DNA of 64,000 nt, taken from assembly GCA_031414535.1 (NCBI GenBank), contig JANNVQ010000008.1:1-64000 (forward strand). The letters run 5' to 3'. Both the position numbers and the translations under genes were made by a program. Positions 46,747 to 64,000 of the stretch are shown here, piece by piece. The notes beneath the pieces were generated by a model that was not told the DNA's origin, did no database searches, and was given only the letters and a program-made list of their open reading frames with translations. This DNA is from Gemmatimonas sp. GTDB taxonomy: Bacteria; Gemmatimonadota; Gemmatimonadetes; Gemmatimonadales; Gemmatimonadaceae. Within the stretch, counting starts at the first letter, position 1. Every line of letters starts with the position of its first letter.

Positions 46747-46804
46747 GCCACAGGTGCCCGCCGCAGCCGCAGACGCAGCGTCGCGTGAGCGCGAGGGCAG
46801 AGCC

Positions 46805-47641
46805 GTGAGCACGGCGGCCGTTCAGCCGACGCCGGCGGATGTGGCGCGCGCGGTAGCGGCCCTGCGTGCGCGCACATCCGTAACGCCCGAGGTCGCCATC
46901 ATCCTCGGCACCGGCCTTGGAGGACTCGCTGCTGCCCTCGAGGTGAGCGCCTCGATTCCTTACGAGGAGATTCCGGGCTTCCCCGTCTCCACGGTGGAAT
47001 CGCACAGCGGGCGGCTGCTCCTCGGAACGCTTGGCGGTAAGCGCGTGCTCGCCATGCAGGGGCGGTTTCACCGCTACGAGGGATACTCGCTGCAACAGGT
47101 GACCTTGCCTGTGCGCGTCTTGCAGGCCCTGGGTGCGCACACGCTGGTGGTCTCCAACGCTTGCGGCGGCATTCGTGCGGACTGGGCGCCCGGGGACCTG
47201 ATGGCGATCGCCGACCACATCAATCTGCTGGGTGACAATCCACTCGTAGGGCCGCACCACGCGGAGTGGGGCGCGCGTTTCCCTGATATGTCGGCACCTT
47301 ATGATGCGGGGCTGCGCGCGCTGGCCGGAGAGATTGCTGCGGCTCAGGGCACGACGCTACGCGAGGGTGTGTACGCGGCGGTGACGGGGCCAAACCTCGA
47401 GACGCGCGCCGAGTATGCGATGCTGCGCACACTGGGCGCTGATGTGGTAGGCATGAGCACCGTGCCTGAGGTGATTGTGGCACGACAACTGCAAATGCGG
47501 GTGCTGGGTCTGTCCATCATCACGGATGCCTGCGTGCCCGAGACATTGGAAGAAGCGTCACTCGAGAAGATTCTCGCTGTGGCGGCCATCGCCGAGCCTA
47601 AGCTCACCTCGCTGGTGCGCGGGCTGGTGGAGCGCCTCTGA
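46805..47641 (+). CDS. punA: Purine-nucleoside phosphorylase (trimeric family)
   Basis: [33 protein letters not shown] and VGMSTVPE. Confidence 0.92.
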
Positions 47642-47643
47642 CT

Positions 47644-50600: not shown

Positions 50601-50967
50601 GGTGACGATTGCTGCCAAGGCCTCAACGACGTTAGTCGTGCAGCAGGGCGAGGGCATGTCCGTCGCATTGGATCCGGCGTTGACGCCGGAGTTGCGCGCG
50701 GAGGGTATGGCCCGTGAAGTGGTGAGCCGTGTGCAGCGCCTGCGAAAGGAAAGCGGGCTCGCCGTCAGTGATCGGATTCGCCTGGTGGTGGCGGCGACGA
50801 TTGAGGTGCAGCAAGCCCTGCGTGTGCACGCGCAGTGGGTTGCATCAGAAGTGTTGGCCCGGGACTGCGTCATCGCCGATGCGCTCCCGACCCCCGCGTG
50901 GCCCGCGACCGCCGAGCTTGAACTCGACGGTACGATGGCGCGCATCGCCCTTTGCAAGGACAGTTGA
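47644..50967 (+). CDS. ileS: Isoleucine--tRNA ligase, type 2, with GIHH signature and two repeat insertions
   Basis: EGPPTANG, GWDTHGLPVE, WTTTPWTL, DWAISRDRYWG, EGVDQTRGWF and KMSKS; type-2 C-terminal REVVSRVQRLRK. Confidence 0.97.
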   Translation: MTTSGMNFRTMPADLTADALEQEVMARWTRDGVFAASQAARADAPAWVFYEGPPTANGKPGIHHVFARTVKDLFCRHRAMLGHHVPRKAGWDTHGLPVEIEVEKQLGLSGKQDIERIGVAEFNRRCRESVWTYKGDWEEVSARMGYWLDYDDPYVTYTNEYVESVWWALKTLHTKNLLYQGHKILPYCARCGTALSSHELAQGYEDVEDPSVYVALDLETGRMTDDGSLKHPSSVIRRRIIVWTTTPWTLVSNVALAVNPELSYVELRKKSVSDWTIILAEARASAVLGADYRDRWDEVALVKGTALVGMKYKRPLDWVEYPDEGNTELIVGEEFVSADDGSGVVHMAPAFGADDYAAGQRHKLAFVNPVNARGEFPAAMPLVGGLFVKKADPLIIEELERRDQLWKSQQFVHSYPHCWRCRTPLLYYARGSWFVRTTAYKDRMMARNAAVNWNPPEVGAGRFGSWLENNIDWAISRDRYWGTPLPVWVNDEDTDEIEVIGSFAELAAKVGRALPDDFDPHKPHIDTYTWPAPSGKGTMRRVPEVIDTWFDSGSMPFAQWGYPHQAGSAEKVARYFPADFIAEGVDQTRGWFYSLLAIATGLGDALPGNAADTGRMTDDGSGPASVIRHPSPLASPYRAVVVNDLVLDANGQKMSKSRGNTVDPRQVMSRHGADAVRLFLMASSQVWVPRRFDESVIRETAGRFLVTLRNVYSGIFAQYANFGWTPSAEDPAPSARPVLDRWVLSRLASVEHEVDAALLRFDATAASRLLMEFVTEDVANWYVRLSRSRFYDVTSEDNRAAFATLHEVLVVVSRLLAPFAPFVSDWMHVELTGQSVHLADFRRHAASASVLPRDEGLERAMSAARTLSTLGRAARESAGIKVRQPLGTLTCVTPGIEATWHAMIAPLVAAELNIKSVRFEDSAADWVRLEGKANFPVLGKVVGAAMKATKPVVENLDQAQLRTIEGGGMVTVDVPGHGPLELDATRVTIAAKASTTLVVQQGEGMSVALDPALTPELRAEGMAREVVSRVQRLRKESGLAVSDRIRLVVAATIEVQQALRVHAQWVASEVLARDCVIADALPTPAWPATAELELDGTMARIALCKDS
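48304..48355. repeat. GACGGAT palindromic element inserted in frame in ileS (copy 1)
   Basis: GGACGGATGACGGATGACGGAAGC...CATCCGTCATCCGTCATCCGTC, read as GRMTDDGSLKHPSSVIR. Confidence 0.92.
49483..49536. repeat. GACGGAT palindromic element inserted in frame in ileS (copy 2)
   Basis: GGACGGATGACGGATGACGGAAGC...TCCGTCATCCGTCATCCGTCC, read as GRMTDDGSGPASVIRHPS. Confidence 0.92.
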
Positions 50968-50969
50968 TT

Positions 50970-51392
50970 ATGGCGACCCCGGCTCCTAGCGGTGAGAAGA
51001 AGTACAAGCCGTTTCCGAAGAAGCAGATCCAGTACTTCGAGAAGCGTTTGCTCGACGAGCGTAAGCGCGTGCTCAAGGAGCTCGGTCACTACGACGAAAC
51101 CTTCGGCAACACGCCGCAGGGCGCGGACGGCGACCTGAGCGCCTATTCGTTCCATATGGCGGATCAAGGCACCGACGCGATGGAGCGCGAGAAAGCCTTC
51201 CTGTTCGCCTCTAAAGAAGGGCGCTTCCTCTGGCACGTAGATCAGGCGCTGCGCCGCTTGTACCGCACGCCCGATGAGTTCGGGAAGTGCCACAACTGCG
51301 GTGGCGAAGTGGGCTTTGACCGACTCGATGCACTACCGCACGCGCGGTATTGCATTGACTGCAAGCAGCGTGAGGAAGATGGCAAGAAGTGA
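50970..51392 (+). CDS. dksA: TraR/DksA-family C4 zinc-finger regulator
   Basis: HMADQGTD coiled-coil tip; CHNC...RLDALP.ARYCIDC. Confidence 0.85.
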   Translation: MATPAPSGEKKYKPFPKKQIQYFEKRLLDERKRVLKELGHYDETFGNTPQGADGDLSAYSFHMADQGTDAMEREKAFLFASKEGRFLWHVDQALRRLYRTPDEFGKCHNCGGEVGFDRLDALPHARYCIDCKQREEDGKK

Positions 51393-51960
51393 GCCCGGGG
51401 GCTTCGGCCCCGCGTCAGTGTTGGGCATCGTCGGTGGAATTGTTCTCGCCGACGCGTTCACCAAATTGCTGGCCGTCGATCGGCTGATGCCCATCCATAC
51501 GCCGCACCCGGTGATTGGGGAGTGGCTGCGCTGGACGCTGGTCTACAATCCCGGTGCGGCCTTTGGGTTGCATTTGGGCCCTTGGTCGCGGTGGATTTTC
51601 GTGGTGCTCACCTTCGTGGCACTCGGCGTGCTGTGGAACATGTATCGCACCAGTGTGCCGGACGCGCGCATCAAAGTGTTGGCGCTGTCCAGCATCGCCG
51701 GTGGCGCGATTGGCAATCTCGTAGATCGCCTTCGCTCGTCGCGCGGTGTGGTGGATTTCATTGACGTTGGCGTGCGCGACTGGCGCTGGCCCACGTTCAA
51801 CATTGCGGATATCGCGGTGAGCTGCGGGGCGATTGCGCTGGCAATCGTGCTGTGGCGCGAGGACGCCGAGATGGCGCGCCAGCACAAGGCGCATAGTGAG
51901 CGAGCGTCGGGCGATCCCGACGCGGCGAACGGCAGTACGTCCCGCACGACGCAGAGATGA
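51379..51960 (+). CDS. lspA: Lipoprotein signal peptidase II
   Basis: NPGAAFG, GGAIGNLVDR, VVDFI and FNIAD. Confidence 0.95.
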   Translation: MARSEPGGFGPASVLGIVGGIVLADAFTKLLAVDRLMPIHTPHPVIGEWLRWTLVYNPGAAFGLHLGPWSRWIFVVLTFVALGVLWNMYRTSVPDARIKVLALSSIAGGAIGNLVDRLRSSRGVVDFIDVGVRDWRWPTFNIADIAVSCGAIALAIVLWREDAEMARQHKAHSERASGDPDAANGSTSRTTQR

Positions 51961-51961
51961 T

Positions 51962-52960
51962 ATGACGGAGCCGCTTGGACCTGGGCGGCACAGCTTCAGC
52001 ATCGCCGACGAGGACGTCGGCGAACGGCTGGACTTGGTGATTGCGCGCCGCGCGGGCTGTTCGCGTACGCAGGCCGCCACGCACATCGCGACGGGGCGCG
52101 CGACGGTGGATGGTGTGGTTGAGCGCGCGTCGTTCCGGCCGGAAGGGGGCGAGACCATCGAATTGGAGATCCCCGCGCCGCAGGGCCGCGCGGTGGTGCC
52201 GGAGCAGATTCCCATCAGCGTGGTCTTTGAGGACGAAGACCTCGTGGTGGTGGATAAGCCGGCGGGTATGGTGGTGCATCCGGCGCCCGGCAACTGGACT
52301 GGTACCTTGGTGAACGCGTTGCTTGGGCGCGGTCAGGAGCTCGCGGACGGTGGCGGTCCCGAGCGCGCCGGCCTCGTGCATCGCCTCGACAAGGAAACGA
52401 GCGGATTGTTGGTCGTCGCCAAGACCGACCGCGCGCTCAAGTCGCTGTCGGGGCAAATTGCGGCGCGCACGGTGAAGCGACGCTACGCCGCGCTCTCATG
52501 GGGGCATCTGGACGCCGACAAAATGACGGTGGACAAGCCCATCGGCCGCGATCCCAACGACCGCACGCGGATGTCCATTCAGACGGACGGGCGGCAAGCG
52601 CGCACGGATTTTACCCGTTTGGGACGCTTCGATTCGGTGGATTTGCTCCGTGCGGAGCTCCATACCGGACGGACGCACCAGATTCGCGTGCATTTGGCCA
52701 GTATCGGGCACCCGGTGGTCGGCGACGACACCTACGGGGGTGGCGGGGGACGCCGTCTGGTGGAATTGCCTCCCAAACGGCATTTCCTTCATGCCGCCTG
52801 GCTCGTCTTTACTCACCCGGTGTCGGGGGCGCGGATGGAAATGCGCTCCCCGTTGCCAGAGGACCTCCGGCGCTCGTTGGCGAGAGTGGCAGGGGACCAG
52901 GCTTTGATTGCTCACCCCGACGCCCTGGAGTACTTTGGCTACTATAGAGCGTCCGAGTGA
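51962..52960 (+). CDS. rluD: RluA/RluD-family pseudouridine synthase
   Basis: S4 domain (RLD), KPAGMVVHP, HRLDKETSG and TGRTHQIRVH. Confidence 0.93.
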   Translation: MTEPLGPGRHSFSIADEDVGERLDLVIARRAGCSRTQAATHIATGRATVDGVVERASFRPEGGETIELEIPAPQGRAVVPEQIPISVVFEDEDLVVVDKPAGMVVHPAPGNWTGTLVNALLGRGQELADGGGPERAGLVHRLDKETSGLLVVAKTDRALKSLSGQIAARTVKRRYAALSWGHLDADKMTVDKPIGRDPNDRTRMSIQTDGRQARTDFTRLGRFDSVDLLRAELHTGRTHQIRVHLASIGHPVVGDDTYGGGGGRRLVELPPKRHFLHAAWLVFTHPVSGARMEMRSPLPEDLRRSLARVAGDQALIAHPDALEYFGYYRASE

Positions 52961-53460: not shown

Positions 53461-53823
53461 GTGGCTCCGACGGTACTCATCTGCGACGATGCGATTTTCA
53501 TGCGGACGATGGTTGGCGACATCCTGACGCAGGCGGGCTTCGAGATCGTGGGCGAAGCCGAGACGGGTACACAGGCTGTGGAGCGCTATAAGGCGCTCCG
53601 CCCTGATCTCGTCACCATGGACATCGTGAGGCCCGATATGGGCGGCATTGACGCCGTCCGCGAGATTACAAAGTTCGATCCGAACGCCAAGGTGCTGATG
53701 TGCAGCGCAATGGGACAGCAGTCGCTGGTGGTGGAAGCGATCCAGGCCGGGGCCAAGGACTTCGTGGTGAAGCCCTTCCAGCCGAGCCGCGTGCTGGAGG
53801 CGGTGCAGCGCGTCCTGGGCTAA
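53461..53823 (+). CDS. cheY: CheY response regulator (Bacillus/Thermotoga-like)
   Basis: DDAIFMR, PDLVTMDI, MCSAMGQQ and DFVVKPF. Confidence 0.93.
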   Translation: MAPTVLICDDAIFMRTMVGDILTQAGFEIVGEAETGTQAVERYKALRPDLVTMDIVRPDMGGIDAVREITKFDPNAKVLMCSAMGQQSLVVEAIQAGAKDFVVKPFQPSRVLEAVQRVLG

Positions 53824-53853
53824 GGGCCCGCTCGCGCCCCGTCGTCTCGCCAC

Positions 53854-55851
53854 GTGGATCCCTCGCGCTACGCTGACCTGTTTCGCACCGAGAGCCGTGA
53901 ACAGCTCTCGACGGTGAATCGCGCCCTGCTCTCCATCGAGCAGGGGGACGATCCCGCGGAGCCGGTGGCGGCGATTTTTCGCGGTGTTCACACCATTAAG
54001 GGCATGAGCGCCACGATGGGGTACACGGCTGTTGCGGAGTTCTCGCACGAGCTGGAGTCGTTGCTCTCGAAGGTGCGTGATGGCGACCAAACTGTCAGCG
54101 CGGAGTTGATGGACGCGCTGTTCGCTGCGGCCGACGCGCTCGAGGACGGGGTGGAGCACTCGCGCGAAGGCAGCACGCTGACCCCAGGCATGCAGCAAGC
54201 GCTTGAGCGCTTGCACGACATTGCCGGTGGGCGCTCCACCGCGGAGTTCCGCGTGGTGCGGCCGAGTGGCGTGGTGAAGATGCCCGCTGAGGACCTCGAT
54301 CCGCTTGATGGAGAAGGCACGCTGGTGCACGTGGTGCAGGAGCCCACAGTGGTCCTGCCCGGCGTGCGCGCTTTCATGGCGGTGCAGCGACTGGGGGACT
54401 TGGGCGAGATTCTCGCCTGCGTCCCTTCGGTGGAGAAACTGCAGGCTGCGACGACGCCGCAAACTTTCAGTGTGCGTCTGCGCACCGCGGCCGGTGAGGC
54501 GGAGTTGGCACACGCGGTGCGGAGCGCGGGCGATGTGGCCGGCGTGCGCGTCGAAGAGCGCGCGGCAGTGTCGGTGATTGCGCCCGCATCCGCTACCATC
54601 GCAATCGCGTCCTCAACGCTTGATGAAGTCACTAACGCCGCGCATCCCTTGCGTCGCGCCAGTGATGCCTTTGGCGTTGCCGACACACTCGGGCCCGCAG
54701 AGCGCGGCAGCAGCCCGCGCGCCCGGCACGTGCGCATCGAACTCTCGCGCTTGGACGCCTTGCTCGACCTCGTGGGCGAGTTGGTCATTGTGCGCGGCCG
54801 CCTGCGGGCGCTCACCCGCGCCAAGGCCGACGCGCCGCTGCAAGACGCGATGGACGACGCGACACGGCTCATCTCCGACTTGCAGGCGGAGATCATGACG
54901 AGCCGCCTTGTCCCAGTGGGACAGGTGTTCGATCGCTTCCCGCGCTTGGTGCGCGACGTGGCGCGTGCGCTGGGCAAGGATGTGCTGTTCAGCATCGAAG
55001 GAAAGGACATCGAGATGGACCGCTCGGTGCTCGACGAGATCGGCGAGCCGGTGGTGCATCTGCTGCGCAACGCGGTGGACCACGGACTGGAGATGCCGGC
55101 GGTACGCGAGGCGGCGGGCAAGGCGCGAGCGGGTCGGCTCGTGCTCTCTGCACAGCGAGACCGCAACTCCGTTGTGATCACGGTCAAGGACGACGGCAAA
55201 GGCATCGATCGCGCGCGGGTGATGGCGCGCGCGGTGGCCAGTGGACTGCTGCCGGCCGGCACCGAGCGCCTCGACGATGATGATTTGCTGCGCTGCATCG
55301 CGCAGCCGGGATTCTCGACGTCGGAGCGGGTGACAGAGGTGTCTGGCCGCGGCGTGGGCGTGGACGCGGTGATTTCGCGCGTGCGCGCACTCGGTGGATC
55401 GGTGGAGTTGCAGACCCAGCCCGGCCGCGGTACCAGCGTGACGCTACGCTTGCCGGTGACGCTGGCCATTGTGCGCGCGCTGCTGGCGCGCATCGGCGCC
55501 GAGCGCTACGCGCTGCCGCTCACGCATGTACGCGAGACGCTTGAGCGGGGGACGGCCGTACTGCGCCAGGTACAGGGGCGCGAGATGCTCATCCTGCGCG
55601 ATGAGGTGCTGCCCGTCTTGCGCCTGCGCGACGTGGTACTTCTGCCGGGGCAGGTGGCGGGTGAGGAGATTGTCGTGATTGAACGTGGCGAGCGGCGGGC
55701 GGCCTTGGTGGTGGACGAGCTCACCGCGCAGGAAGACATCGTAGTGAAGTCCTTCGACGGAGCTCGGGACGGGCTCGCGCTGTTCAGTGGCGCGACCATC
55801 CTTGCGGACGGGGCGCCGGCACTCATCGTGGACGTGGGGAGCTTGCTATGA
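53854..55851 (+). CDS. cheA: CheA histidine kinase
   Basis: Hpt FRGVHTIKG, P2-like region, LVGELVI, HLLRNAVDHG, DDGKG, SGRGVG and a C-terminal CheW domain. Confidence 0.95.
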   Translation: MDPSRYADLFRTESREQLSTVNRALLSIEQGDDPAEPVAAIFRGVHTIKGMSATMGYTAVAEFSHELESLLSKVRDGDQTVSAELMDALFAAADALEDGVEHSREGSTLTPGMQQALERLHDIAGGRSTAEFRVVRPSGVVKMPAEDLDPLDGEGTLVHVVQEPTVVLPGVRAFMAVQRLGDLGEILACVPSVEKLQAATTPQTFSVRLRTAAGEAELAHAVRSAGDVAGVRVEERAAVSVIAPASATIAIASSTLDEVTNAAHPLRRASDAFGVADTLGPAERGSSPRARHVRIELSRLDALLDLVGELVIVRGRLRALTRAKADAPLQDAMDDATRLISDLQAEIMTSRLVPVGQVFDRFPRLVRDVARALGKDVLFSIEGKDIEMDRSVLDEIGEPVVHLLRNAVDHGLEMPAVREAAGKARAGRLVLSAQRDRNSVVITVKDDGKGIDRARVMARAVASGLLPAGTERLDDDDLLRCIAQPGFSTSERVTEVSGRGVGVDAVISRVRALGGSVELQTQPGRGTSVTLRLPVTLAIVRALLARIGAERYALPLTHVRETLERGTAVLRQVQGREMLILRDEVLPVLRLRDVVLLPGQVAGEEIVVIERGERRAALVVDELTAQEDIVVKSFDGARDGLALFSGATILADGAPALIVDVGSLL

Positions 55852-56474
55852 CGATTCCATTGGACGACGTCCGGAACCTTTCGCGCGCTGCGCTCGACGC
55901 ACTGCGTGAAGTGGCCAACATCGGCGCGGGGCACGCTGCGACGGCGCTCTCGCAGATTACCGGGCAGCGCATCATGATCTCGGTGCCGCAAATCAATGTG
56001 GCGGCTATCGAGGATGTGCCGAATCAGATCGCCTCGGGCGAGGAACCAGTGGCCGGCATCGCCATCAAAGTCGAGGGCGATCTCACGGGCCTCACGCTAC
56101 TCGTGTTCCCGAAGCCGATCGCCTATCGCATCGCGAGCCTGATGATGGGCGGCCGGCCGGTGACGCAGCTCGGGGCCATCGAGGAAAGCGCACTCAAGGA
56201 GGCGGGGAACATTCTCTCGGCGGCGTATCTCAATGCGCTGGCGGAGTTTCTTGGCATGCGCATTCTCAACTCACCGCCTCTGCTTGCGGTGGACATGAGC
56301 GATGCCATTCTGAGCTCCACCTATGTGGAGACCTCGCAAGGTGCCTCGCACGTGTTCTGCGTGGAGAGCGAGTTCCAGCTCGCCAACGATACGCTTCCGT
56401 TGCGAGGTTTCTTCCTGCTGCTGCCTGACCCGCCATCGCTGCGGGCCATGCTCACGGCCATCAAGGTTTCGTGA
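55848..56474 (+). CDS. cheC: CheC phosphatase
   Basis: Two ExxN sites: DALREVANIGAGHAATALS and SALKEAGNIL. Confidence 0.9.
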   Translation: MTIPLDDVRNLSRAALDALREVANIGAGHAATALSQITGQRIMISVPQINVAAIEDVPNQIASGEEPVAGIAIKVEGDLTGLTLLVFPKPIAYRIASLMMGGRPVTQLGAIEESALKEAGNILSAAYLNALAEFLGMRILNSPPLLAVDMSDAILSSTYVETSQGASHVFCVESEFQLANDTLPLRGFFLLLPDPPSLRAMLTAIKVS

Positions 56475-59179
56475 CCCGTCCGTCCATCGCCGTGTCAACG
56501 CGGGACCGCGAGGTCCTGCGTGGCTTTGCGCGCCGCATTGATGCGGCGGACGCCGGCGCGCACAATAACCTGGGTGTGTTGTATTACACGAAGGGATTGT
56601 ACGAAGAAGCGGTAGAGGCCTTCACGAAGGCGCTCGACCTGGACCCCAAGATGCAGGTGGCGCAGCGCAATCTCGAAGTCGCCTACTTCAACACGGGCTA
56701 CTACGATTCGCGCGTCGCGGAGCTGCGTGAGCGCTTGCGCCACAAGCCCGATGATCGCGATGCTCGTTGGGAGCTCGGCCGCGCCTTCGCCTTGCTCGGT
56801 CAGCCAGAAGACGCCATCCCGGAATTTCAGGCGCTCCTCGCGCTGCGTCCGGGCGACGTGGGCACGATGATCCAGCTGGGACTCGCCGAGAAGGCGGCGG
56901 GGCGCCTGGGCGTGGGACTGAGTTGGTTCCGCACCGCCTTGGGTCGCGATCCGCAGAGTGGATTGCTGCATTTCTACGTGGGCGAGGTGCTGTACAATCA
57001 AGGCGCGTTCGATGATGCGCTGAGCTCCTTGCATCGCGCCATCCAGTTGAATCCTGATCATCCGGACTCGCATTTCCTGCTCTCCTTCGTACTCGGCGAC
57101 ATGGGCCGCCACGATGAAGCGCAGGCCGCCTCCAAGCGCGCCATCCAGTTGAACCCGGCGCTTTCGCGGGCCCAAGCCAACCTCTCGCTCGACGAGTATG
57201 ACCAAAAGAAGTACGAGCAGTTGGTGCCGGGACGTCAGGCAAGAAAGTCGCAGGCGCAAATGCGCATTGCCGAAGGCGAGCCCTTGGCGCACTACACGCT
57301 AGGGCAGGCGTTCCGCCAGCAGGGATTGCTTTCCGAGGCAAGTCGCGAGTACGACACCGCGCTGCTGCGGGGTGAGGATCGTGCGCTGGTGGTGCAGGCG
57401 ATGGCCGAACTGCACTTGCTGCGCAAGGAACCGCAGCCGGCCATCGCGTTGTACGACGAGTTGCTGGCGCAGCAGTCTGATTCACCCAAGCTGTGGAACG
57501 AACGCGGCGTGGCCTTGCATCAAACTGGTGACCATGCGGCGGCGGCAGAGAGTTATGGCAAGGCGCTGCAGGTGGACCCGACCTACGTCATCGCGCGGAA
57601 CAATCTCGCGGTGGCACTGTTCCACGACAATTCGCCCGAAGACTCGATTGACGAGTTCCGCGAGGCATTGCGTTCGAACCCGATGTTCATCAAGGCGCGG
57701 CTCAATCTCGCGCTCTTGCTCGTGCGCGGGAAGCGTTTTCAGCTTGCGCTTGAGGCGTATCGGCAGGTGTTGGAGCACGACGCCGAAGCCCCGTTGGCCT
57801 GGAATGGCGTGGGCTTGGTGCTCAGTGAGATGCGCCGGTTCGACGAGGCGCGCACGGCCTACGCCCGCGCCATTCAGTCCAAGCCGGATTTCGCCGAAGC
57901 GCATTACAACTTGAGCTTCACGCTCTCCAATCTTGGCGACTACGCTGGGGCGCTGCGCGAAACCAAGCGTGCGCTGGAGATGGATCCGTACTACACGCCT
58001 CAGACCTTCCAACTCGCCATTGACCTCGAGTTTGAGGACGTAGACCTAACGGTTGTGCCGGATTTGGGCGGCGAGAAGCGGATAAGCGGCGGGGTGGAGA
58101 CCTTCAGCTTCGATAACTCGATCCTCGACTCCATCTTCAAGCAGCTTGATCCCGTGGTGGCGCCAGAACAGGCGCCAGCGGAGGAAGGTGATCCCTACGC
58201 CCTCGCGGAGGACTTCCTCTCAAAGGGGTTGGTCGATCGTGCGATGGCGGAGGTGAGGCGTGCTCTGGGGCGCGGCGCGGAACCAGCGCGGGGCGATGCT
58301 TTGCTCGGAGAGGCGTTTGGACGTCAGGGTGCCTGGGGCGATGCGCTCGAGCGCTTTGAAGCCGCTCGCCGAGTGGACGCGCGCAACACCGAGGCGCTAC
58401 GCGGCGAGACCCAAGCCTTGCTCATGCTGGGGCGCGGCGCGGAAGCTGCGGCGCCCGCGGCCATCTTGCTTGAACTGCTTCCAACCGACGTGGATGCCTT
58501 GTTACTCGTGGCGACGGCGCGCTTTGAGAGCGGTGACGCCCAAGGTGCGCTCGCAGTACTCGACGACGCACGGCGCGCCGATCCCACGCGCGCCGAGGTG
58601 CTGCGTGGCGTGGGCAACGTCCTGCGCGCGATGGAGAACATTGACGCCGCCATCTCCGCGTATCGTCATGCGCTTACGATTGACGGCGACTTTGCGGCCG
58701 TGCGCTACGACTTGGCGCAGTTGCTGATCACGCGTGGCGATTTCTCCGAGGCCGAGCGCGAGTTGCTGCTCGCGCTCGACGCCGTGCCCACCTACGCCGA
58801 TGCAACGCTGTCGCTGGCATCCTTGCACCGGCAGCGCGAGGAAACGGGGAAGGCACTGGCCTTGCTCGTGGACTTCCTCGAGCGCGATCCGTACTCGTTT
58901 GACGGGCTCGTGGCGCTGGGTGAACTGCTCCTCGACATGGGCCGCAATGAGGATGCTGCCTTTGCCTTCCAACGCGTGCTGCGCTTTGATCCCGCGCACG
59001 TGGGTGCCGTGTTCCATCAGGGTTTGCTCCTCTCACGCCAGCAGCGCTTTCGTGAGGCGGTAGCCTGCTTCCGACGCGTGGCCGAATTGGAGCCGCAGGG
59101 TGAGTTCGCCCGCCGAGCCTTCCGCGAAGCGCGCGCAATCGCGCAGCGCGTGGATGGCTTGGACGAGGAGGCGGGCTAA
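56471..59179 (+). CDS. Large cytoplasmic TPR-repeat protein
   Basis: Many TPR units (AHNNLGVLY...ALDLDP; AHYNL...ALEMDP); no signal peptide. Confidence 0.9.
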   Translation: MTRPSIAVSTRDREVLRGFARRIDAADAGAHNNLGVLYYTKGLYEEAVEAFTKALDLDPKMQVAQRNLEVAYFNTGYYDSRVAELRERLRHKPDDRDARWELGRAFALLGQPEDAIPEFQALLALRPGDVGTMIQLGLAEKAAGRLGVGLSWFRTALGRDPQSGLLHFYVGEVLYNQGAFDDALSSLHRAIQLNPDHPDSHFLLSFVLGDMGRHDEAQAASKRAIQLNPALSRAQANLSLDEYDQKKYEQLVPGRQARKSQAQMRIAEGEPLAHYTLGQAFRQQGLLSEASREYDTALLRGEDRALVVQAMAELHLLRKEPQPAIALYDELLAQQSDSPKLWNERGVALHQTGDHAAAAESYGKALQVDPTYVIARNNLAVALFHDNSPEDSIDEFREALRSNPMFIKARLNLALLLVRGKRFQLALEAYRQVLEHDAEAPLAWNGVGLVLSEMRRFDEARTAYARAIQSKPDFAEAHYNLSFTLSNLGDYAGALRETKRALEMDPYYTPQTFQLAIDLEFEDVDLTVVPDLGGEKRISGGVETFSFDNSILDSIFKQLDPVVAPEQAPAEEGDPYALAEDFLSKGLVDRAMAEVRRALGRGAEPARGDALLGEAFGRQGAWGDALERFEAARRVDARNTEALRGETQALLMLGRGAEAAAPAAILLELLPTDVDALLLVATARFESGDAQGALAVLDDARRADPTRAEVLRGVGNVLRAMENIDAAISAYRHALTIDGDFAAVRYDLAQLLITRGDFSEAERELLLALDAVPTYADATLSLASLHRQREETGKALALLVDFLERDPYSFDGLVALGELLLDMGRNEDAAFAFQRVLRFDPAHVGAVFHQGLLLSRQQRFREAVACFRRVAELEPQGEFARRAFREARAIAQRVDGLDEEAG

Positions 59180-60159
59180 TGGCCATTGAAGGCCCGCTGA
59201 AGGAGCTCGGCATCCACGACGTCTTCCAACTGCTCGATCTGAGCCGGAAGACGGGGGTGCTCATCGTCACCTCGCAGCTTCGTGACAACGAAGGCGAGGT
59301 GCTGTTCGAGAATGGCAAGGTCATTTCGGCGAGCATCAAGTCCAATCCGCACCGCATCGGCGACCTACTCGTGCGCACAGGGCGGCTGACGGATGCGGAT
59401 CTCGCACGCGTGCGCGATTCGCAGGCTGCTGGCGACAAGCGCCGCTTCGGGGAAATCCTTATCGCCCTCGGCTTGGTCACGGCGCGCGAGATTGAGCGGC
59501 AGATGCGCTTGCAGATTGAAGCTGTGGTGTTTGAATTGATGGCGTGGTCCGAAGGAAACTTCCGGTTCACCGAAGGACTGGATGATGACGCCTTTCGCGA
59601 TGCTTCGGCGCCCTTGGGCACAGAGTCGCTCCTGATGGAAGGCGCGCGGCGCATTGACGAATGGTCACGCATCGCGGATCGCGTACCCAACCTGTCGGTG
59701 ATTCCTGACCTCGCGCCCGGCGACGCTGATCATCCAGCGCTGCTCGATCTGTTGCCGCAGGAGTGGAAGGTGTTGGCCATGATTGACGGCGCAACAGATC
59801 TGCGCACCATCGCCGCGACGGTCTCGATGAGCGAGTTCGATGTGGCGCGCGTCATGTACGGACTCGTGAGCACGGGCGTCGTGATATTGCGGCAACCGAC
59901 GCGCAACAGTTCCACCATCGCGCTGCCGAGTGAACTCCGGAAGGCCTCGAAGCTCACGCCGCACGGTGTGGTGCCTTCGGCGCTGGTGCGTGGGGCGGAG
60001 TATTTCCGTCGCGGCGCACTCTCCGATGGAATCGCCACCTGGTCTGCGTTCATCGAGAGCACGCCGAAGTATCCGTCGGCTACAGACCTCCGCGACGCCG
60101 TGCGGGGCGCGACGAAGCTCGTGGAAGTGCTCGACCGGGAGGTGCCGCGTGAGCGGTGA
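59179..60159 (+). CDS. DUF4388 (PatA-N-like) domain protein with MshEN-like repeats and a wHTH-like segment
   Basis: IEGPL....DVFQLL..SRKTGVL, RIGDLLV / RFGEILI, WSEGNFRF, LLMEGARRIDEW and EWKVL..IDG. Confidence 0.85.
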   Translation: MAIEGPLKELGIHDVFQLLDLSRKTGVLIVTSQLRDNEGEVLFENGKVISASIKSNPHRIGDLLVRTGRLTDADLARVRDSQAAGDKRRFGEILIALGLVTAREIERQMRLQIEAVVFELMAWSEGNFRFTEGLDDDAFRDASAPLGTESLLMEGARRIDEWSRIADRVPNLSVIPDLAPGDADHPALLDLLPQEWKVLAMIDGATDLRTIAATVSMSEFDVARVMYGLVSTGVVILRQPTRNSSTIALPSELRKASKLTPHGVVPSALVRGAEYFRRGALSDGIATWSAFIESTPKYPSATDLRDAVRGATKLVEVLDREVPRER

Positions 60160-60961
60160 CATTCGGTCCATGAGCGAGCAGCTCGCCGCGGATCCGGCGA
60201 GCTTGGTGTTCTTGCCGCTCGCCGAGCAGCTGCTCGGACGCGGGGAGCTGGCGCACGCATCACGTGTGGCGCGGAAGGGTGCCGAGCGGCACGCGCATCG
60301 CGCTGATGTGCACGACTTGGTGGCGCGCATCGCGCTCGCGCAGGGCGAGGAGACCGCGGCCGAGCGCGCCTGGATTTCGTCACTGGCCATTGCGCCGGAC
60401 TTTGGCGCCGCGCATCGTGGACTGGGCTTCCTCTGCTATCGTCAGGGGCGCTGGGACGACGCGCAGACGCACCTGGCCAAGGCGCGCACGATGACGCCCG
60501 GTGATCCGGCGCTCGAGGCCGCGTGGGAAGCGCTCCACGTGGCGCGCACGGAAGACTTACGTACGGCACAGGCCGCTCCCGAACTTTCCGCCGCCGAGTC
60601 AGCTGGTGCGTTGTTTGCGGGACAGATCGGCGAGACGGGACAGGTGGCGCTTTTGCTCGACTCCGATGGTTTGGTGGTGGCAGGGCAGTACATGACAGCT
60701 CAGGGCGAGGATCTGGGCGCCATCATCGGCGCGCACTTGTCTGGCGTCAGTGACGAAGCGGCGCGCGCTATGCGGCACTTTGGGCTTGGCACCTGGACGC
60801 GCATCGCGATTGAAACGGAAGCCGCCACCGTAGTGATGGCGCCCACGGGAGAGAGCGTCACTCTCGTGGCGGCGCCGCGCGATGTTCCCTTGGGCTTGGT
60901 GCGACGGACGCTTGATCACTGCGTGCAGGCCGCCGCCGCGTGGTTGGGAGGTGGCGTATGA
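60149..60961 (+). CDS. TPR + roadblock/LC7 fusion protein
   Basis: N-terminal DPASLVFLPLAE and TPR units; C-terminal ALLLDSDGLVVA roadblock signature. Confidence 0.78.
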   Translation: MSGDIRSMSEQLAADPASLVFLPLAEQLLGRGELAHASRVARKGAERHAHRADVHDLVARIALAQGEETAAERAWISSLAIAPDFGAAHRGLGFLCYRQGRWDDAQTHLAKARTMTPGDPALEAAWEALHVARTEDLRTAQAAPELSAAESAGALFAGQIGETGQVALLLDSDGLVVAGQYMTAQGEDLGAIIGAHLSGVSDEAARAMRHFGLGTWTRIAIETEAATVVMAPTGESVTLVAAPRDVPLGLVRRTLDHCVQAAAAWLGGGV

Positions 60962-61299
60962 GTAGCTTTGCCCCGCTACTCGCCACCGTGACGCGGCACC
61001 GCGGCGTGATGGCCTGTCTGGTTGTGGCCGAGGAAGATGGCATCGTCGTGGAGGGCACGGCGCAGATGGGCGTGGACACTGCGGCGTTCGCCGCGCTCAC
61101 GGCTTCGCTCTACCGGAAGGCCGCACGGGCCGCGGCGAGTGCTGGATTCGGCGGCACCAGCTTCTGCGATTTGGAGGCCCAACAGGGTCGGGTGCTCGCA
61201 GCGGGCCGCAACGGTCTCGTGCTGGTGGCAGTGGCTGAGCCGCGGGCGAATCTCGGTTTGCTGCGCGTGGAACTGCTGAAGGCGGCGGCGGCCCTGTGA
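60958..61299 (+). CDS. Roadblock/LC7 (MglB-like) protein
   Basis: GVMACLVV.EEDGIVV, LEAQQGRV and NLGLLR. Confidence 0.85.
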   Translation: MSSFAPLLATVTRHRGVMACLVVAEEDGIVVEGTAQMGVDTAAFAALTASLYRKAARAAASAGFGGTSFCDLEAQQGRVLAAGRNGLVLVAVAEPRANLGLLRVELLKAAAAL

Positions 61300-61769
61300 T
61301 TCGTCACTCCATCACTATTGGTTGGGCCGATGCGCCACTCAAGCGCTTTGTGGATGACGCGCGTTTGGAACACGCCATCTTGATGCACACGAGTGGCCAA
61401 GTGCTCGCACAGGTTGGATTTCAACGCTCGATTGACGTGCAGACCGCCTGCGCGCTCTCGGCGGCCATCAACGCGTCGGCCGATCACTTGGGGAAGATGG
61501 TGGACGGGCGCCCGTTCACCGGTCTGCATTATGGTGGGAAGGCGCGACAGATTTATCTTGGCTTACTGCAGACATCGAGCGGTCCGCTGCTGCTGCTGGC
61601 CGTGTTCGACACCGAAAGTTCGCTGGGCATCGTGCAGCTCTATCTCAAGGAGCTGCAGGCGCACGTAGCGGCAGCCGCTCCGGCGGCGGAAGACGAATCG
61701 CCGGCCTTGGCTGAGAACTTTGAGTCGGATCTCAACCGCAACCTCGCCCAACTCTTCGGGAGGGGCTGA
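61296..61769 (+). CDS. mglB: MglB-like GTPase-activating roadblock protein
   Basis: SGQVLAQ.G, ALSAA...A, F..L.Y.G, VFD.ESSLG.V.L and an acidic C-terminal helix; immediately upstream of mglA. Confidence 0.75.
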   Translation: MIRHSITIGWADAPLKRFVDDARLEHAILMHTSGQVLAQVGFQRSIDVQTACALSAAINASADHLGKMVDGRPFTGLHYGGKARQIYLGLLQTSSGPLLLLAVFDTESSLGIVQLYLKELQAHVAAAAPAAEDESPALAENFESDLNRNLAQLFGRG

Positions 61770-61803
61770 TGCGAGACTCCATCCATCACCGCGAGACCGT
61801 CCA

Positions 61804-62403
61804 GTGAGCCTCGTTAACTACGCCACGCGCGAGATCACCTGCAAGATTGTCTACTACGGACCAGGTCGGTCCGGCAAGACGACCAATCTGCATTACATCC
61901 ACGGTCAGGTGCCGACGGATCGTAAGGGGCAGATGGTGTCGCTCGCCACGCAGACCGACCGCACGCTGTTCTTTGACTTCCTGCCGATTGATCTCGGAAC
62001 CATCTCCGGCTTCTCGACGAGATTCCAGCTGTACACGGTGCCCGGGCAGGTCTACTACCAGACCACGCGCAAGCTTGTGCTGCAAGGCGCGGACGGGGTG
62101 GTGTTTGTGGCGGATTCGCAGTCGCGGCAGCTGCAGGAGAACATCGAAAGTTTTCAGGACCTGCACGAGAATTTGGCGGAGCAGGGCGTGGACGCGCGCA
62201 GCATGCCGCTGGTGGTGCAGTACAACAAAATTGATTTGCCCGACGAATTACGCACGCCGGTGCCCGAGCTCGAGGACGCCATCAATTTCCGCGGCGTCCC
62301 ATCGTTCTCCGCGGACGCGCTGCACGGCCCGGGGGTGTTTGAGACGCTACGCGGCATCTCGGAACAGGTGTTGCGTAAGCTGAGCGCTGGGCGGAACGGC
62401 TAG
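61804..62403 (+). CDS. mglA: MglA-family small Ras-like GTPase
   Basis: KIVYYGPGRSGKTTNL, DRTLFFDF, YTVPGQV, GADGVVFVADS and QYNKID. Confidence 0.93.
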   Translation: MSLVNYATREITCKIVYYGPGRSGKTTNLHYIHGQVPTDRKGQMVSLATQTDRTLFFDFLPIDLGTISGFSTRFQLYTVPGQVYYQTTRKLVLQGADGVVFVADSQSRQLQENIESFQDLHENLAEQGVDARSMPLVVQYNKIDLPDELRTPVPELEDAINFRGVPSFSADALHGPGVFETLRGISEQVLRKLSAGRNG

Positions 62404-62404
62404 G

Positions 62405-64000
62405 ATGCGTCTCGACCCTCGCTTCACCTTTGAACGCTTGGTGGTCGGCGCGGCGAATCGTCTCGCGGCCGCGGCGGCGCGGGCCGTGGCCGAAGCGCCG
62501 GGCACGACCTACAACCCGCTCTTCATCTACGGCGGCTCCGGGCTCGGGAAGACGCATCTGCTCACCGCCACGGCGCATCTGCTTCAGCACCTGCAGCCGA
62601 AGGCCGAAGTGCTCGCGCTTTCGCTGGACGAGTTCTCGGAGCAGTATCACGCCGCCGTGAGCGCGGGCGAGACATCGGCCTTTGGGCATCGCATTGCCGG
62701 GGTGGACCTGCTGCTGCTCGACGATTTGCAGTTTGTGACTGGGCGGCGGGAGATGCAGGCGGAATTGTTGCGCCTCTTCTCCGTGATGCAGGACAGCAAT
62801 CGGCAAATTGTCTGCGCCAGCGACCGTCCACCGTCAGAGATTGCCGACGTGGATGAGCGTTTGATTTCGCGGATGGCGGGTGGCCTCGTGGTGGATGTGG
62901 GGCTGCCGGAGTATGAGGCTCGCGTGGCCATTCTTCGCTCGGCCATCGCTGAGCGCGAGATTAGTGTGCCCGATGGCGCGGTGGAGCGCCTCGCCGAGCG
63001 CGGCATCTCCAGTGTGCGCGAGTTGCAGGGCTTGCTGAATCAGTGGATTGCACAGGAGTCCATGGGCGCCAGTGCTCGCAAGATGCCAACGCCGATGCCC
63101 GGCGGTGTGGATGCGTTACGGCCCTCCGGCGAGTTCCTCTCCTTTCTCTCCGATGTGGCCGCTGTGGTGCAGGAGCAGGTGGAGACATGGCAGGTGCGTC
63201 TGCGCGAGGTGATTGCGTACTGGAAGGGCGAGGGCTATCGCACGGCGGTGCTCGAGCGCGCCCTCGCCCTGCCAAGCGAACCCGATGTGCAGGGACTGCT
63301 TGCCATTTATGTGCAGGCGGTGGATCACTTGCGGGTGCTGGAGCGCGAGGCCACGGCGGTGGACGGATCCCTTGGCGGTCACGAACTGTTTCGCGATCCC
63401 GAGCGCCTACAAGAAGCCGAAGAGTTCGTGGACAAGGCACTCGCTGGTGAGTTCCCCCCGGGTGGGCCCAATCCGTCGTTTACGCGCGAAGGCTTTGACG
63501 TTGGCTCGGCAAATCAGCTCGCCGTGCACGCTGCCGACGCCGTGATTGCCCAGCCGGGTACCCGCTACAACCCCTTGCTCATCACGGGGCCGAGCGGCGT
63601 GGGCAAGACGCACCTCGTGCACGCTATCGGTAACGCCATTGCCGCGCGCAGCGAGGGGCAGGTGCTGGCGGCCTGCGTGCATGCGCAGGCGCTGGTGGAT
63701 GAATTGATCGCGGCCATTCAACAGGGCACGGTGGAGCGGTGGAGAGCGCGCTACCGTGCGGCCGGTATCCTGGTGATTGACGACATCCAGTTCCTCGCGG
63801 GTAAGGAGCGCACGCAGGACGAGTTCTTCTTCGTATTCAATGCGCTCATCGAGGACGGCAAACAGATTATCCTCTCGTCGGATCGCGTGCCGTCCGAGAT
63901 ACCCGACCTTGCCGCGCGCCTGCGGTCGCGCTTCGAGGGCGGACTCATAGCGGAGATTCAGTCGCCGGACCGTCCGTTGCGCGAGAAGCTTGCGGCGCGA
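62405..64000 (+). CDS. Protein with two tandem DnaA/Hda-type AAA+ domains (runs off the window; absent from the ORF track)
   Basis: Hand translation from ATG 62405 is open to the window end. Domain 1: YNPLFIYGGSGLGKTHL, LLDDLQF, SDRPP, RLISR, SVRELQG. Domain 2: YNPLLITGPSGVGKTHL, IDDIQFL, SSDR, RLRSRFEGG. Confidence 0.9.
   Translation, partial: MRLDPRFTFERLVVGAANRLAAAAARAVAEAPGTTYNPLFIYGGSGLGKTHLLTATAHLLQHLQPKAEVLALSLDEFSEQYHAAVSAGETSAFGHRIAGVDLLLLDDLQFVTGRREMQAELLRLFSVMQDSNRQIVCASDRPPSEIADVDERLISRMAGGLVVDVGLPEYEARVAILRSAIAEREISVPDGAVERLAERGISSVRELQGLLNQWIAQESMGASARKMPTPMPGGVDALRPSGEFLSFLSDVAAVVQEQVETWQVRLREVIAYWKGEGYRTAVLERALALPSEPDVQGLLAIYVQAVDHLRVLEREATAVDGSLGGHELFRDPERLQEAEEFVDKALAGEFPPGGPNPSFTREGFDVGSANQLAVHAADAVIAQPGTRYNPLLITGPSGVGKTHLVHAIGNAIAARSEGQVLAACVHAQALVDELIAAIQQGTVERWRARYRAAGILVIDDIQFLAGKERTQDEFFFVFNALIEDGKQIILSSDRVPSEIPDLAARLRSRFEGGLIAEIQSPDRPLREKLAAR

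Follow-up and report, generated by a model that had tools for sequence, protein, structure and literature searches.

The window, that is, the whole stretch of DNA that was analysed, comprised 64,000 nucleotides of a Gemmatimonas sp. genome (assembly GCA_031414535.1, contig JANNVQ010000008.1, positions 1 to 64,000). Its last part carried an operon of Che, TPR, PATAN, Roadblock and MglA genes, within which lay a gene for a protein with two DnaA-type AAA+ modules, designated here as 2xDnaA. The genes up to the end of the window were as follows:

53461..56474, + strand: head of the operon, conserved in synteny, with CheY (53461-53823), CheA (53854-55851) and CheC/CheX (55848-56474).
56471..59179, + strand: TPR protein of 902 aa (synteny).
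59179..60159, + strand: PATAN (DUF4388) protein (PF14332, E 3.2e-30; synteny).
59930..60961, + strand: TPR and Roadblock/LC7 protein (Pfam, synteny), given as the longest ORF; the true start is probably later.
60940..61299, + strand: MglB-like Roadblock/LC7 protein (PF03259, 23.5 bits at a cut-off of 23; synteny).
61296..61769, + strand: syntenic protein of 157 aa that may be a divergent Roadblock/LC7 protein, the third in the operon (Robl_LC7 at 14.7 bits, E 0.026, below the cut-off).
61720..62403, + strand: MglA-type small GTPase with the TVPGQ motif (Arf/Ras/Roc-type matches), given as the longest ORF; the length of its orthologues, about 199-205 aa, suggests a later start.
62405..64000, continuing on the contig to 64306, + strand: tandem AAA+ protein of the DnaA domain III type, 2xDnaA (two PF00308 matches, no Bac_DnaA_C; orthologues of 590-670 aa).

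The operon was located between DivIVA and the mraW/dcw cluster. Neither an MCP gene nor a ParA-like gene was found within the che operon. In 18 of the 20 loci compared, the gene order was CheY-CheA-CheC/X-TPR-PATAN-Roadblock(x2-3)-MglA-2xDnaA-PATAN/TPR-(CheR-CheD-CheB-CheW)-TPR-peptidase. MglA was directly upstream of 2xDnaA in 18/20 loci, and a PATAN/TPR gene was directly downstream in 20/20, its start often overlapping the 2xDnaA stop. The remaining two loci, from genome group f7, kept only 2xDnaA, PATAN/TPR and peptidase-MA, and were adjoined by an NtrC-like regulator.

The 2xDnaA ORF was open to the window end, and extension along the contig gave a full product of 633 aa. Its ATG (62405) came one base after the mglA stop (TAG, 62401-62403), as a sequence-only reading had claimed. 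The parts of the protein were located as follows:

62405..63070, + strand: module A1, aa 1-222, a complete domain-III-like AAA+ module with lid (PF00308).
62534-62557, + strand: Walker A of A1 (K49 at 62549-62551).
62720-62725, + strand: Walker B of A1 (D106-D107).
63071..63178, + strand: flexible connector, aa 223-258 (AlphaFold2 pLDDT <50).
63179..63442, + strand: family-specific helical domain, aa 259-346 (pLDDT 90-96).
63467..64000, to contig position 64174, + strand: module A2, aa 355-590, the second DnaA-type AAA+ module (PF00308).
63587-63613, + strand: Walker A of A2 (K401).
63779-63784, + strand: Walker B of A2 (D459-D460).
Contig 64196-64303, beyond the window, + strand: conserved C-terminal tail, aa about 598-633 (motif conservation).

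Pfam analysis placed Bac_DnaA (PF00308) in two stretches of 2xDnaA (whole-protein E 3.2e-102), the two matches that had been expected. In a Bac_DnaA profile search of the genome, module 1 alone (62411-62896) scored 172.8 bits (E 1.4e-50) and module 2 alone (63470-63952) scored 173.4 bits (E 9.3e-51), both above the gathering cut-off of 23 bits and far beyond chance. Both covered the full profile (positions 1-162), including the lid. The second copy had been placed from about 63465, and A2 was found to start at about aa 355 (nt about 63467). Walker A, Walker B, sensor I, the arginine finger and sensor II, claimed from the letters, were present in both modules; the motif names and E. coli equivalents are those that we take to apply at these positions. 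Between the end of A1 (about aa 222) and the start of A2 (about aa 355) there were about 134 aa, within the 130-140 aa that had been estimated. The term helical linker for this stretch was right for aa 259-346, a compact helical domain with conserved W262, G277, L283 and L309 and a FRDPER..EAE motif, and wrong for aa 223-258, a disordered stretch whose length and sequence differed among homologues.

The Bac_DnaA profile alignment began at the third residue of 2xDnaA, the orthologues began at the same point as the window protein, and Pfam detected no N-terminal DnaA domain in the complete 633 aa; the genome's own DnaA has 118 residues ahead of domain III. No Bac_DnaA_C (PF08299) match was present in the full 633 aa obtained by extending the contig. 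The description of two DnaA-type AAA+ modules joined covalently in one chain, with no DnaA N-terminus (domain I) and no domain IV, was thus borne out. The gene had also been called unlisted; close homologues are already in public databases, under the names 'DnaA/Hda family protein' and 'DnaA ATPase domain-containing protein', and some are wrongly named 'chromosomal replication initiator protein DnaA'.

A search for a canonical dnaA elsewhere in the genome revealed a full DnaA of 465 aa on contig C57, which contained the genome's one Bac_DnaA_C match and excluded 2xDnaA as the only dnaA. A fourth, weak Bac_DnaA match in the genome (contig C25) was IstB. A Bac_DnaA_C match was present in 41/41 sampled Gemmatimonadota genomes. 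A1 shared 42% identity with domain III of its own genome's DnaA and A2 shared 41% with that DnaA, while A1 and A2 shared 35% with each other. Against TIGR00362 (the DnaA equivalog), the summed score of 2xDnaA was 467.9 versus a cut-off of 343.9, which was exceeded only because the scores of the two modules add up, each covering about positions 103-322 of 437. The other NCBIfam models searched with 2xDnaA stayed below their cut-offs: NF001154 (308.7 versus 410), NF009087 (205 versus 657), the Hda models TIGR03420 (148.8 versus 194.8), NF005982 (56.8 versus 268) and NF051883 (50.3 versus 300), and the IstB/DnaC models NF038214 (95.2 versus 200) and NF005931 (24 versus 357).

Compared with DnaA (PF00308; structures 8bv3, 8btg, 2z4r, 3r8f, 1l8q and 2hcb), both modules of 2xDnaA have the domain III fold, the lid and the catalytic motifs. 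Unlike DnaA, 2xDnaA has two modules per chain; it lacks domain I, the domain II linker and the helix-turn-helix of domain IV, it has an added family-specific helical domain and a C-terminal tail with a predicted docking role, and its gene lies in a Che/MglA operon away from the origin. Hda/HdaA is likewise a DnaA-type AAA+ protein without a DNA-binding domain, and its principle, an arginine finger acting on the ATP of a neighbour, is likely to apply to 2xDnaA; however, Hda is a single module of about 230 aa, whereas 2xDnaA has two modules in 633 aa and another genomic context. By eye, the N-terminus of 2xDnaA was not of what we take to be the clamp-binding type of Hda. DnaC, DnaI and IstB belong to the same initiator AAA+ clade (IstB_IS21 gave a weak Pfam match to 2xDnaA, 65 bits), but each has only one module and works with other partners (a helicase or a transposase). 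The type II classic AAA+ proteins p97/Cdc48, Rix7 and NVL also have two AAA+ modules per chain. Their likeness to 2xDnaA appears to be that of tandem AAA proteins in general (Foldseek TM 0.22-0.32, rmsd >19 Å, 15-16% identity), although the arrangement of the modules in the 2xDnaA model is itself uncertain (pTM 0.52). The p97/Rix7 type falls into another AAA+ clade and assembles into hexameric double rings, which no feature seen here suggests for 2xDnaA.

Residue conservation was counted over 67 aligned family members. In A1, Walker A K49 and Walker B D106 were each present in 67/67; in A2, Walker A K401 was present in 58/67. The box VII arginine finger was kept in 57/67 members in A2 (R509) versus 45/67 in A1 (R156). 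All nine members without K401 had R509, and the arginine finger of A2 was judged to be better conserved than its P-loop. In the window protein and its near relatives all catalytic motifs were intact in both modules, so that, as judged from the motifs, the set of an active ATPase is complete in both.

The AlphaFold2 model of 2xDnaA had a pLDDT of 88.7 but a pTM of only 0.52, so that the position of A1 relative to A2 in the model is uncertain. Foldseek showed that the top structural match was domain III of B. subtilis DnaA (8bv3_A; E 1.3e-20, TM(target) 0.89), with an rmsd of 1.4 Å and 41% identity. The helical domain predicted alone had a pLDDT of 84.9. It matched no Pfam family, and a Pfam search with 18 linker sequences gave nothing above noise. 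When its fold was compared with 48,161 PDB representatives, the matches were all of a generic helical kind, with a best Z of 5.2 and none that reached 8.

Of the 200 Gemmatimonadota genomes sampled, about 128 had a two-module orthologue, and most of these belonged to the window's own order, at a presence cut (best E <= 1e-60) chosen after the table had been seen; the counts are not independent, since the sampled genomes are kin. By genome group, presence was 26/38 in f1, 92/96 in f2, 3/3 in f3, 4/4 in f4, 2/23 in f7 and 1/3 in f8, and at the same cut no orthologue was found in groups f5, f6 and f9-f12 of these 200 genomes. All two-module loci in named genomes (33/33) were from Gemmatimonadota, and 2xDnaA is Gemmatimonadota-specific. 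Full-length relatives extended down to about 31% identity, and the cultured relative Pseudogemmatithrix spongiicola has an orthologue (P0005) with 92% identity.

A misassembly, or two adjacent dnaA-like genes fused by a sequencing error, would also give a tandem ORF, and in two of the 20 loci (L036 and L037) the 2xDnaA gene did appear as two ORFs. Both splits came from frame shifts, located within the variable stretch that separates the modules or close to it, and neither was a clean two-gene form. A single ORF for 590-670 aa was present in clearly more than 100 genomes and on numerous metagenome contigs, and the A1 and A2 subtrees were congruent. Since the same single ORF is conserved across many genomes, misassembly was rejected, and an artefact of either kind is barely conceivable.

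A tree of both halves was constructed from 103 modules (30 A1, 30 A2, 31 DnaA of the phylum, 11 unnamed representatives and 1 IstB) by a quick method with SH-aLRT support only. With a support of 97, the A2 modules formed a single clade; the subtrees of A1 and A2 were congruent, and neither A1 nor A2 was nested inside the DnaA of the phylum. In this phylogeny, which had been proposed as a check, the root fell on the 3.3-long IstB branch and is unreliable, so that either one duplication or two recruitments may have given rise to the two modules.

Structure prediction of 2xDnaA with the PATAN/TPR protein encoded directly downstream gave a complex score of 0.80 (runs 0.80, 0.81 and 0.69) versus 0.00 for the best control, with an agreement between runs of at least 48% of contacts and a partner pLDDT of at least 76. 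The docking mark was reached by 116/157 solved complexes and by 2/215 mismatched pairs, counts that hold only roughly because own alignments were used. The input consisted of residues 240-633 of 2xDnaA, and the model itself picked the tail: the predicted interface joined residues 598-633 to TPR residues 283-494. The tail contact residues were conserved (E615 in 59/67, W621 in 63/67, E630 in 58/67), as was the groove of the partner (N322 and D465 invariant; N428, Q458, K461 and N462 in at least 90%). The score may partly reflect likeness, since TPR-peptide complexes are common among solved structures. According to the model, the tail would dock in the TPR groove of the PATAN/TPR neighbour. Known TPR-peptide docking includes that of the EEVD of Hsp70/Hsp90 with TPR co-chaperones. 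Binding of an acidic C-terminal tail in a groove lined by conserved Asn/Lys, as in such docking, was predicted here likewise. Set beside PatA-type PATAN regulators of Synechocystis, the partner here is a PATAN and TPR protein without a receiver domain, and its predicted client is a tandem AAA+ protein.

We give an about even chance to the reading that 2xDnaA has no part in replication and serves the MglA/PATAN polarity module as a repurposed ATP switch or scaffold, probably with an action on type IV pili. A repurposed scaffold had been one of the roles suggested from the letters, and it fitted best, with the gene fixed in an MglA/Roadblock/PATAN/TPR/Che operon and docking of the tail predicted. 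With two DnaA modules and no DNA-binding domain in a chemosensory and polarity operon, and with the apparent docking, it seems that the engine of a replication initiator has been put to use in signalling. 2xDnaA would be a subunit of an MglA/MglB-PATAN-TPR polarity module wired to the Che pathway, and would be co-produced with the PATAN/TPR protein encoded directly downstream. Its tail (E-K-x-V-W-x-W-P...R-x-I-E-E) would lie in the concave TPR groove and tether the ATPase to the PATAN output domain. A1, with its invariant Walker A and B, would be the nucleotide sensor, and A2 would mainly give the box VII arginine finger; given this proposed division, either binding or hydrolysis of ATP at a composite A2-to-A1 site, within one chain (in cis) or across molecules, would switch between an open and an assembled complex. 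Such an ATP-dependent switch or scaffold would set the timing or place at which the polarity module acts. From these features we infer that assembly is driven by ATP, that A1 and A2 divide the work in this way and that pili are the output.

Type IV pili, and not flagella, would be the most likely output, a link drawn from analogy and from the missing FliG. FliG_C had no match in the window's genome (98.4% complete), in which seven T2SSE-family ATPase matches were above the cut-off; in group f2, FliG was present in 22/96 genomes versus about 92/96 for 2xDnaA. No pilus gene was found in the operon. In Synechocystis the PATAN domain, an output domain that engages the pilus motor, binds PilB1 and PilC (bioRxiv 10.1101/2021.06.11.447907), MglA together with the TPR protein SgmX is reported to stimulate type IV pili in Myxococcus (PMC7519303, PMC7668184), and MglA neighbourhoods with PATAN proteins have been noted (PMC4316618). 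The MglA/MglB-SgmX-Frz system of Myxococcus xanthus has the same parts list as the operon (TVPGQ GTPase, Roadblock, TPR, Che); its genes are scattered and not gathered in a single operon as they are here. In literature searches that covered papers outside subscription-only access, no publication was found that connects a DnaA-like ATPase with MglA, with Roadblock or with PATAN.

Since the modules are 41-42% identical to their own DnaA, and since what we take to be the single-strand-DNA contacts of DnaA ('KER' and hydrophobic positions) are still present in A2, an activity linked to DNA or to DnaA may persist. The modules could join DnaA filaments, to cap them, nucleate them or, as Hda does, promote ATP hydrolysis through an arginine finger, and so couple polarity and chemosensing to initiation. 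The modules being closer to their own DnaA domain III (41-42%) than to each other (35%), the box VII arginines and sensor II, the DnaA domain III fold (rmsd 1.4 Å) and the position of the operon between DivIVA and the mraW/dcw cluster are all consistent with such replication control. The genomic context argues against capping or nucleation of DnaA filaments as the main role: 2xDnaA never adjoined dnaA or dnaN in the loci examined and was fixed to MglA (18/20) and PATAN/TPR (20/20), and most genomes of the other orders and classes of the phylum were without it while all those sampled had DnaA. The best Hda score was below the cut-off (TIGR03420, 148.8 versus 194.8), an N-terminus of the clamp-binding type, a motif assumed by us, was not seen by eye, and the A1 arginine finger was missing in 22/67 members. 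Replication control is regarded as unlikely. A variant in which 2xDnaA is a DnaA mimic, its modules being recruited or released by MglA/PATAN and then co-polymerising with or capping the DnaA filament, is quite improbable; if it were true, polarity or surface-motility signalling would directly gate replication initiation in Gemmatimonadales.

ParA-type ATPases (PpfA, ParC) are encoded in some che operons, which offers a functional parallel for 2xDnaA as a nucleoid-anchored positioner. Its ATP-bound modules would bind DNA non-specifically via A2 pore residues and place or partition the Che/MglA complex. The G-K-E-R-T-Q after the A2 Walker B was kept (E468 in 45/67, R469 in 45/67), A2 has a hydrophobic residue at what is presumably the DnaA H-motif position, the che operon has no MCP or ParA-like gene of its own, and the tail is predicted to tether 2xDnaA to an adaptor. 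Against these stand the absence of DNA-binding domain IV and the A1 equivalents, which are R-R-E and a histidine; moreover, the only setting in which DnaA domain III is known to us to bind DNA is that of filaments formed on single strands. We hold such a positioner to be rather improbable. The AAA+ modules might instead be kept for shape or nucleotide binding, so that 2xDnaA would bridge PATAN/TPR to other proteins as an inert scaffold with no ATPase cycle. Divergent members (among them P0141, P0154, P0178, P0191 and P0226) that have lost both arginine fingers and sensor I but kept the P-loops fit this, as does A2 sensor I D493 in only 35/67; A1 K49 and D106 in 67/67, and every catalytic motif of both modules intact in the window protein and its near relatives, do not, and an inert scaffold is considered very unlikely.

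Mislabelling as DnaA is widespread in the 2xDnaA family, and the joint score of the two modules passes the TIGR00362 cut-off; in Gemmatimonadota genomes this may distort both the prediction of origins and the counting of dnaA genes. To our knowledge, the DnaA AAA+ module has been described either as a replication engine (DnaA) or as a direct regulator of DnaA (Hda), and in no other role. Here, a tandem DnaA-module protein has been kept across a whole bacterial order, with the DNA-targeting domains gone and a predicted docking tail gained. If the reading as a repurposed switch or scaffold of the polarity module is true, 2xDnaA would be a clear case of an initiator-clade AAA+ reused in signalling, and polarity systems of the MglA/MglB-PATAN type would gain a new, as yet unexplained component.

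The ORF starting with the ATG at 62405, one base past the TAG that ends an MglA-type GTPase gene as the sequence-only reading had placed it, was open to the window end (the window being G000:C8:1-64000, from a contig of 88,105 bases). It stopped at contig position 64306 and encoded a protein of 633 aa, designated as 2xDnaA. Pfam analysis of the complete protein detected two Bac_DnaA domains (PF00308; whole-protein E 5.5e-102); neither Bac_DnaA_C nor an N-terminal DnaA domain was found. In the genome search the two modules, A1 and A2, each scored about 173 bits alone against Bac_DnaA. The proposed architecture of two tandem DnaA-type AAA+ modules without a DnaA N-terminus was therefore upheld, no helix-turn-helix domain followed on the extended contig, and a misassembly joining two genes was dismissed. 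The Walker A and B motifs, sensors I and II and a pair of box VII arginines were present in both modules; the sequence-only reading had also noted Walker A/B, sensor I, Arg-finger and sensor II motifs. A1 and A2 were 35% identical to each other, and 42% and 41% identical, respectively, to domain III of the genome's own DnaA. The AlphaFold2 model, built from a 67-row alignment (mean pLDDT 88.7, pTM 0.52; the placement of A1 relative to A2 not fixed by the model), divided the protein as follows:

aa 1-222: module A1
aa 223-258: disordered connector
aa 259-346: helical domain, confidently modelled
aa 355-590: module A2
aa 592-633: C-terminal tail, low confidence

The helical domain matched no Pfam family and had no specific structural relative among 48,161 chains compared (best Z 5.2).

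By structure, the closest PDB match to 2xDnaA was domain III of B. subtilis DnaA (8bv3_A; E 1.3e-20, TM on target 0.89), which superposed at an rmsd of 1.4 A with 41% identity; p97 and other classic AAA+ proteins with tandem modules matched loosely, with rmsd above 19 A. Searched by sequence, the PDB gave no hits other than DnaA, with 5 distinct sequences at E <= 1e-10. Although 2xDnaA has AAA+ parts in common with DnaA, it lacks domains I and IV and was rejected as an initiator. Hda was rejected because its models scored below cut-off and 2xDnaA has two modules; membership of IstB/DnaC was likewise rejected. 2xDnaA was not the genome's only dnaA, since contig C57 carried a canonical gene (ATG at 140014, product of 465 aa with domain IV). 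Bac_DnaA_C was matched in 41/41 sampled genomes, so the tandem protein was always an extra. A weak fourth Bac_DnaA match in the host genome was an IS21-type helper ATPase, IstB (contig C25, 662-1438, -), which lies on a 3.1-kb contig and probably belongs to an insertion sequence. Four very long proteins, P0170, P0181, P0184 and P0216 (1990, 1876, 897 and 815 aa), had their DnaA-type AAA+ match away from the canonical position (in the 1990-aa protein at residues 186-397, for instance), which suggests that the DnaA module also occurs in other architectures that are not initiators.

2xDnaA represents a genuine family, conserved within Gemmatimonadota and confined to that phylum. A word-indexed search revealed at least 120 relatives of 576-673 aa (59-96% identity); among those listed, every one with an organism name came from Pseudogemmatithrix spongiicola (92%) or was labelled Gemmatimonas sp., Gemmatimonadaceae, Gemmatimonadales or Gemmatimonadetes. 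Among the matches listed in an exhaustive search of 1.84 billion representatives, full-length relatives reached down to about 32% identity, and one of 33% clustered with records named Gemmatimonadota. ESM Atlas look-alikes of 593-663 aa fell in clusters with Gemmatimonadota as the commonest phylum. A scan of named genomes, which detects only sequences with one of two short patterns, kept 76 distinct loci from 599 confirmed stretches; 33 were two-module or contig-truncated family matches, all in Gemmatimonadota, and the other 43 were single-module DnaA genes of other phyla. Presence was scored in 200 other genomes across the phylum at a best E of at most 1e-60, a cut set after the table was seen, DnaA-only genomes having 1e-32 to 1e-54. 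By this cut 128 genomes were positive, distributed over families f1 (26/38), f2 (92/96), f3 (3/3), f4 (4/4), f7 (2/23) and f8 (1/3); none was positive in f5 (0/1), f6 (0/11), f9 (0/2), f10 (0/13), f11 (0/3) or f12 (0/3). These tallies include four unpublished genomes (G157, G182, G057 and G097, the last being the sole f8 positive).

A maximum-likelihood tree of 103 modules, built by a quick method, recovered A2 as one clade (SH-aLRT 97). Its A1 and A2 subtrees mirrored each other, the same five and the same four sequences grouping in both, and neither module was nested among the DnaA proteins of the phylum. The mirroring and the lack of nesting indicate that the tandem predates the family's radiation. 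Because the root fell on a very long IstB branch and is unreliable, one duplication and two recruitments are both compatible with the tree.

The neighbours were typed by Pfam, and the window's operon proteins were searched with phmmer in the ORFs of 20 loci, one from each of 20 further genomes; together these showed one conserved gene order in 18/20 loci:

first part: CheY, CheA, CheC/X, 900-aa TPR, PATAN (DUF4388), TPR-Roadblock, Roadblock
middle: 157-aa protein, MglA, 2xDnaA, PATAN/TPR
last part: CheR, CheD, CheB, 1-2 CheW, TPR, peptidase-MA-like, TPR, mraW

The corresponding features were located as follows:

window 46249-52960: flank, DivIVA-PNP-IleRS-LspA-RluD
window 53461-62403 and contig C8 64307-71102: che operon with CheY, CheA, CheC/X, CheR, CheD, CheB and two CheW
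window 61296-61769: conserved 157-aa protein, flanked by the Roadblock gene and mglA
contig C8 73543-74529: flank, mraW, with which the division and cell-wall cluster begins

Against Roadblock/LC7 the 157-aa protein scored below threshold (14.7 bits, E 0.026), and it may represent a divergent Roadblock subunit of MglC-like type, the operon's third. Some of CheR, CheD, CheB and CheW were absent from a few loci. No MCP was found in the che operon, and the genome's three MCPsignal matches sit on contigs C37, C38 and C55. The PATAN/TPR gene directly followed 2xDnaA in 20/20 loci, often with stop/start overlap. Two f7 loci retained, of these genes, 2xDnaA, PATAN/TPR and peptidase-MA alone, had an NtrC-type regulator next in line, and still shared the window's DivIVA-IleRS neighbourhood; the constant core is therefore the 2xDnaA and PATAN/TPR pair with the peptidase-like gene. 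In two others of the 20 loci, both in assemblies of few contigs, the tandem gene was interrupted by a frame shift, just past the A1 lid in L036 (10100-10400, -) and inside the variable connector in L037 (9600-10300, +); these breaks may be sequencing error, or a real split or pseudogene.

The Walker A Lys and Walker B Asp of A1 were present in 67/67 members, and the A2 Lys in 58/67. The box VII arginine was retained more often in A2 (R509, 57/67) than in A1 (R156, 45/67); all nine members without the A2 Lys kept R509, and all 22 without R156 kept the A2 Lys. These patterns are most simply read as a pair working asymmetrically: the ATP that matters would be held by A1, the arginine finger would come from A2, either within one chain or from one molecule to another, and A2's own site would be dispensable for turnover. 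In a subfamily made up of family f7 and similar metagenome sequences (P0179, P0188, P0177, P0203, P0232, and loci L034 and L035), the A2 P-loop was degenerate (Lys replaced, Walker B Asp to His), the A2 arginine finger and A1 ATP site were retained, and Che and MglA genes were absent nearby. After Walker B, A2 had KER where A1 had RRE, and a hydrophobic residue where A1 had His. As KER and the hydrophobic position presumably correspond to the single-strand-DNA contacts of DnaA, A2 may, judging from these residues, bind DNA.

The C-terminal consensus EKxVWxWPDxxxRxIEE was well conserved in the alignment (W621 63/67, E615 59/67, E630 58/67). Because of this motif and the many TPR proteins of the operon, the PATAN/TPR protein (20-row alignment) was chosen as partner of residues 240-633 in complex prediction, with three controls. 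The complex scored 0.80 (runs 0.80, 0.81 and 0.69) versus 0.00 for the best control, with contact agreement of at least 48% and partner pLDDT of at least 76. The score mark was met by 116/157 solved complexes and 2/215 mismatched pairs, counts that are only a rough guide here because own alignments were used. The confident predicted interface placed the tail (598-633) along the TPR groove (283-494), with predicted contacts at N322, N428, Q458, K461, N462 and D465 of the partner, all invariant or nearly so. Peptides bound to TPR domains are frequent among solved structures, and part of the pass may come from this likeness; the prediction supports binding of the tail in the groove.

FliG_C had no match in the window's genome (98.4% complete), in which seven matches to T2SSE-family ATPases passed the cut-off, including two long ones of PilB/GspE-like type. 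FliG occurred in 54/201 genomes of the phylum sample; in f2 it occurred in 22/96 versus about 92/96 for the tandem protein, and genus g9 and family f10 had FliG without it. The system is therefore not flagellar. The PATAN domain of Synechocystis is the output that binds PilB1 and PilC (bioRxiv 10.1101/2021.06.11.447907), and Myxococcus type IV pili are stimulated by MglA with the TPR protein SgmX (PMC7519303, PMC7668184).

The surroundings of 2xDnaA match MglA/MglB polarity systems. PMC4316618 records MglA genes close to PATAN proteins and counts Gemmatimonadetes as one of the phyla carrying group 1 MglA; in the sections seen it mentions no DnaA-like neighbour. Our literature search found no published link of a DnaA-like ATPase to MglA/MglB polarity or PATAN systems. 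Control of DnaA itself by 2xDnaA, whose modules resemble DnaA domain III, is unlikely; the gene lies among polarity and chemotaxis genes. Nucleoid-based positioning, with A2 as the putative DNA-binding module, is a somewhat slimmer prospect, and an inert scaffold, in a protein whose A1 Walker residues are invariant, appears improbable enough to rank last.

The finding is real and unusual. Its consequence for genome annotation is a trap for dnaA counts and origin prediction: A1 and A2 together scored 467.9 bits on the DnaA equivalog TIGR00362 (cut-off 343.9), and many members carry the JGI name 'chromosomal replication initiator protein (DnaA)'. For the biology of these bacteria, we give about an even chance that 2xDnaA is a tandem ATPase of DnaA type that has been repurposed and docks on a PATAN/TPR adaptor, within a Che-MglA polarity operon of non-flagellated Gemmatimonadales.
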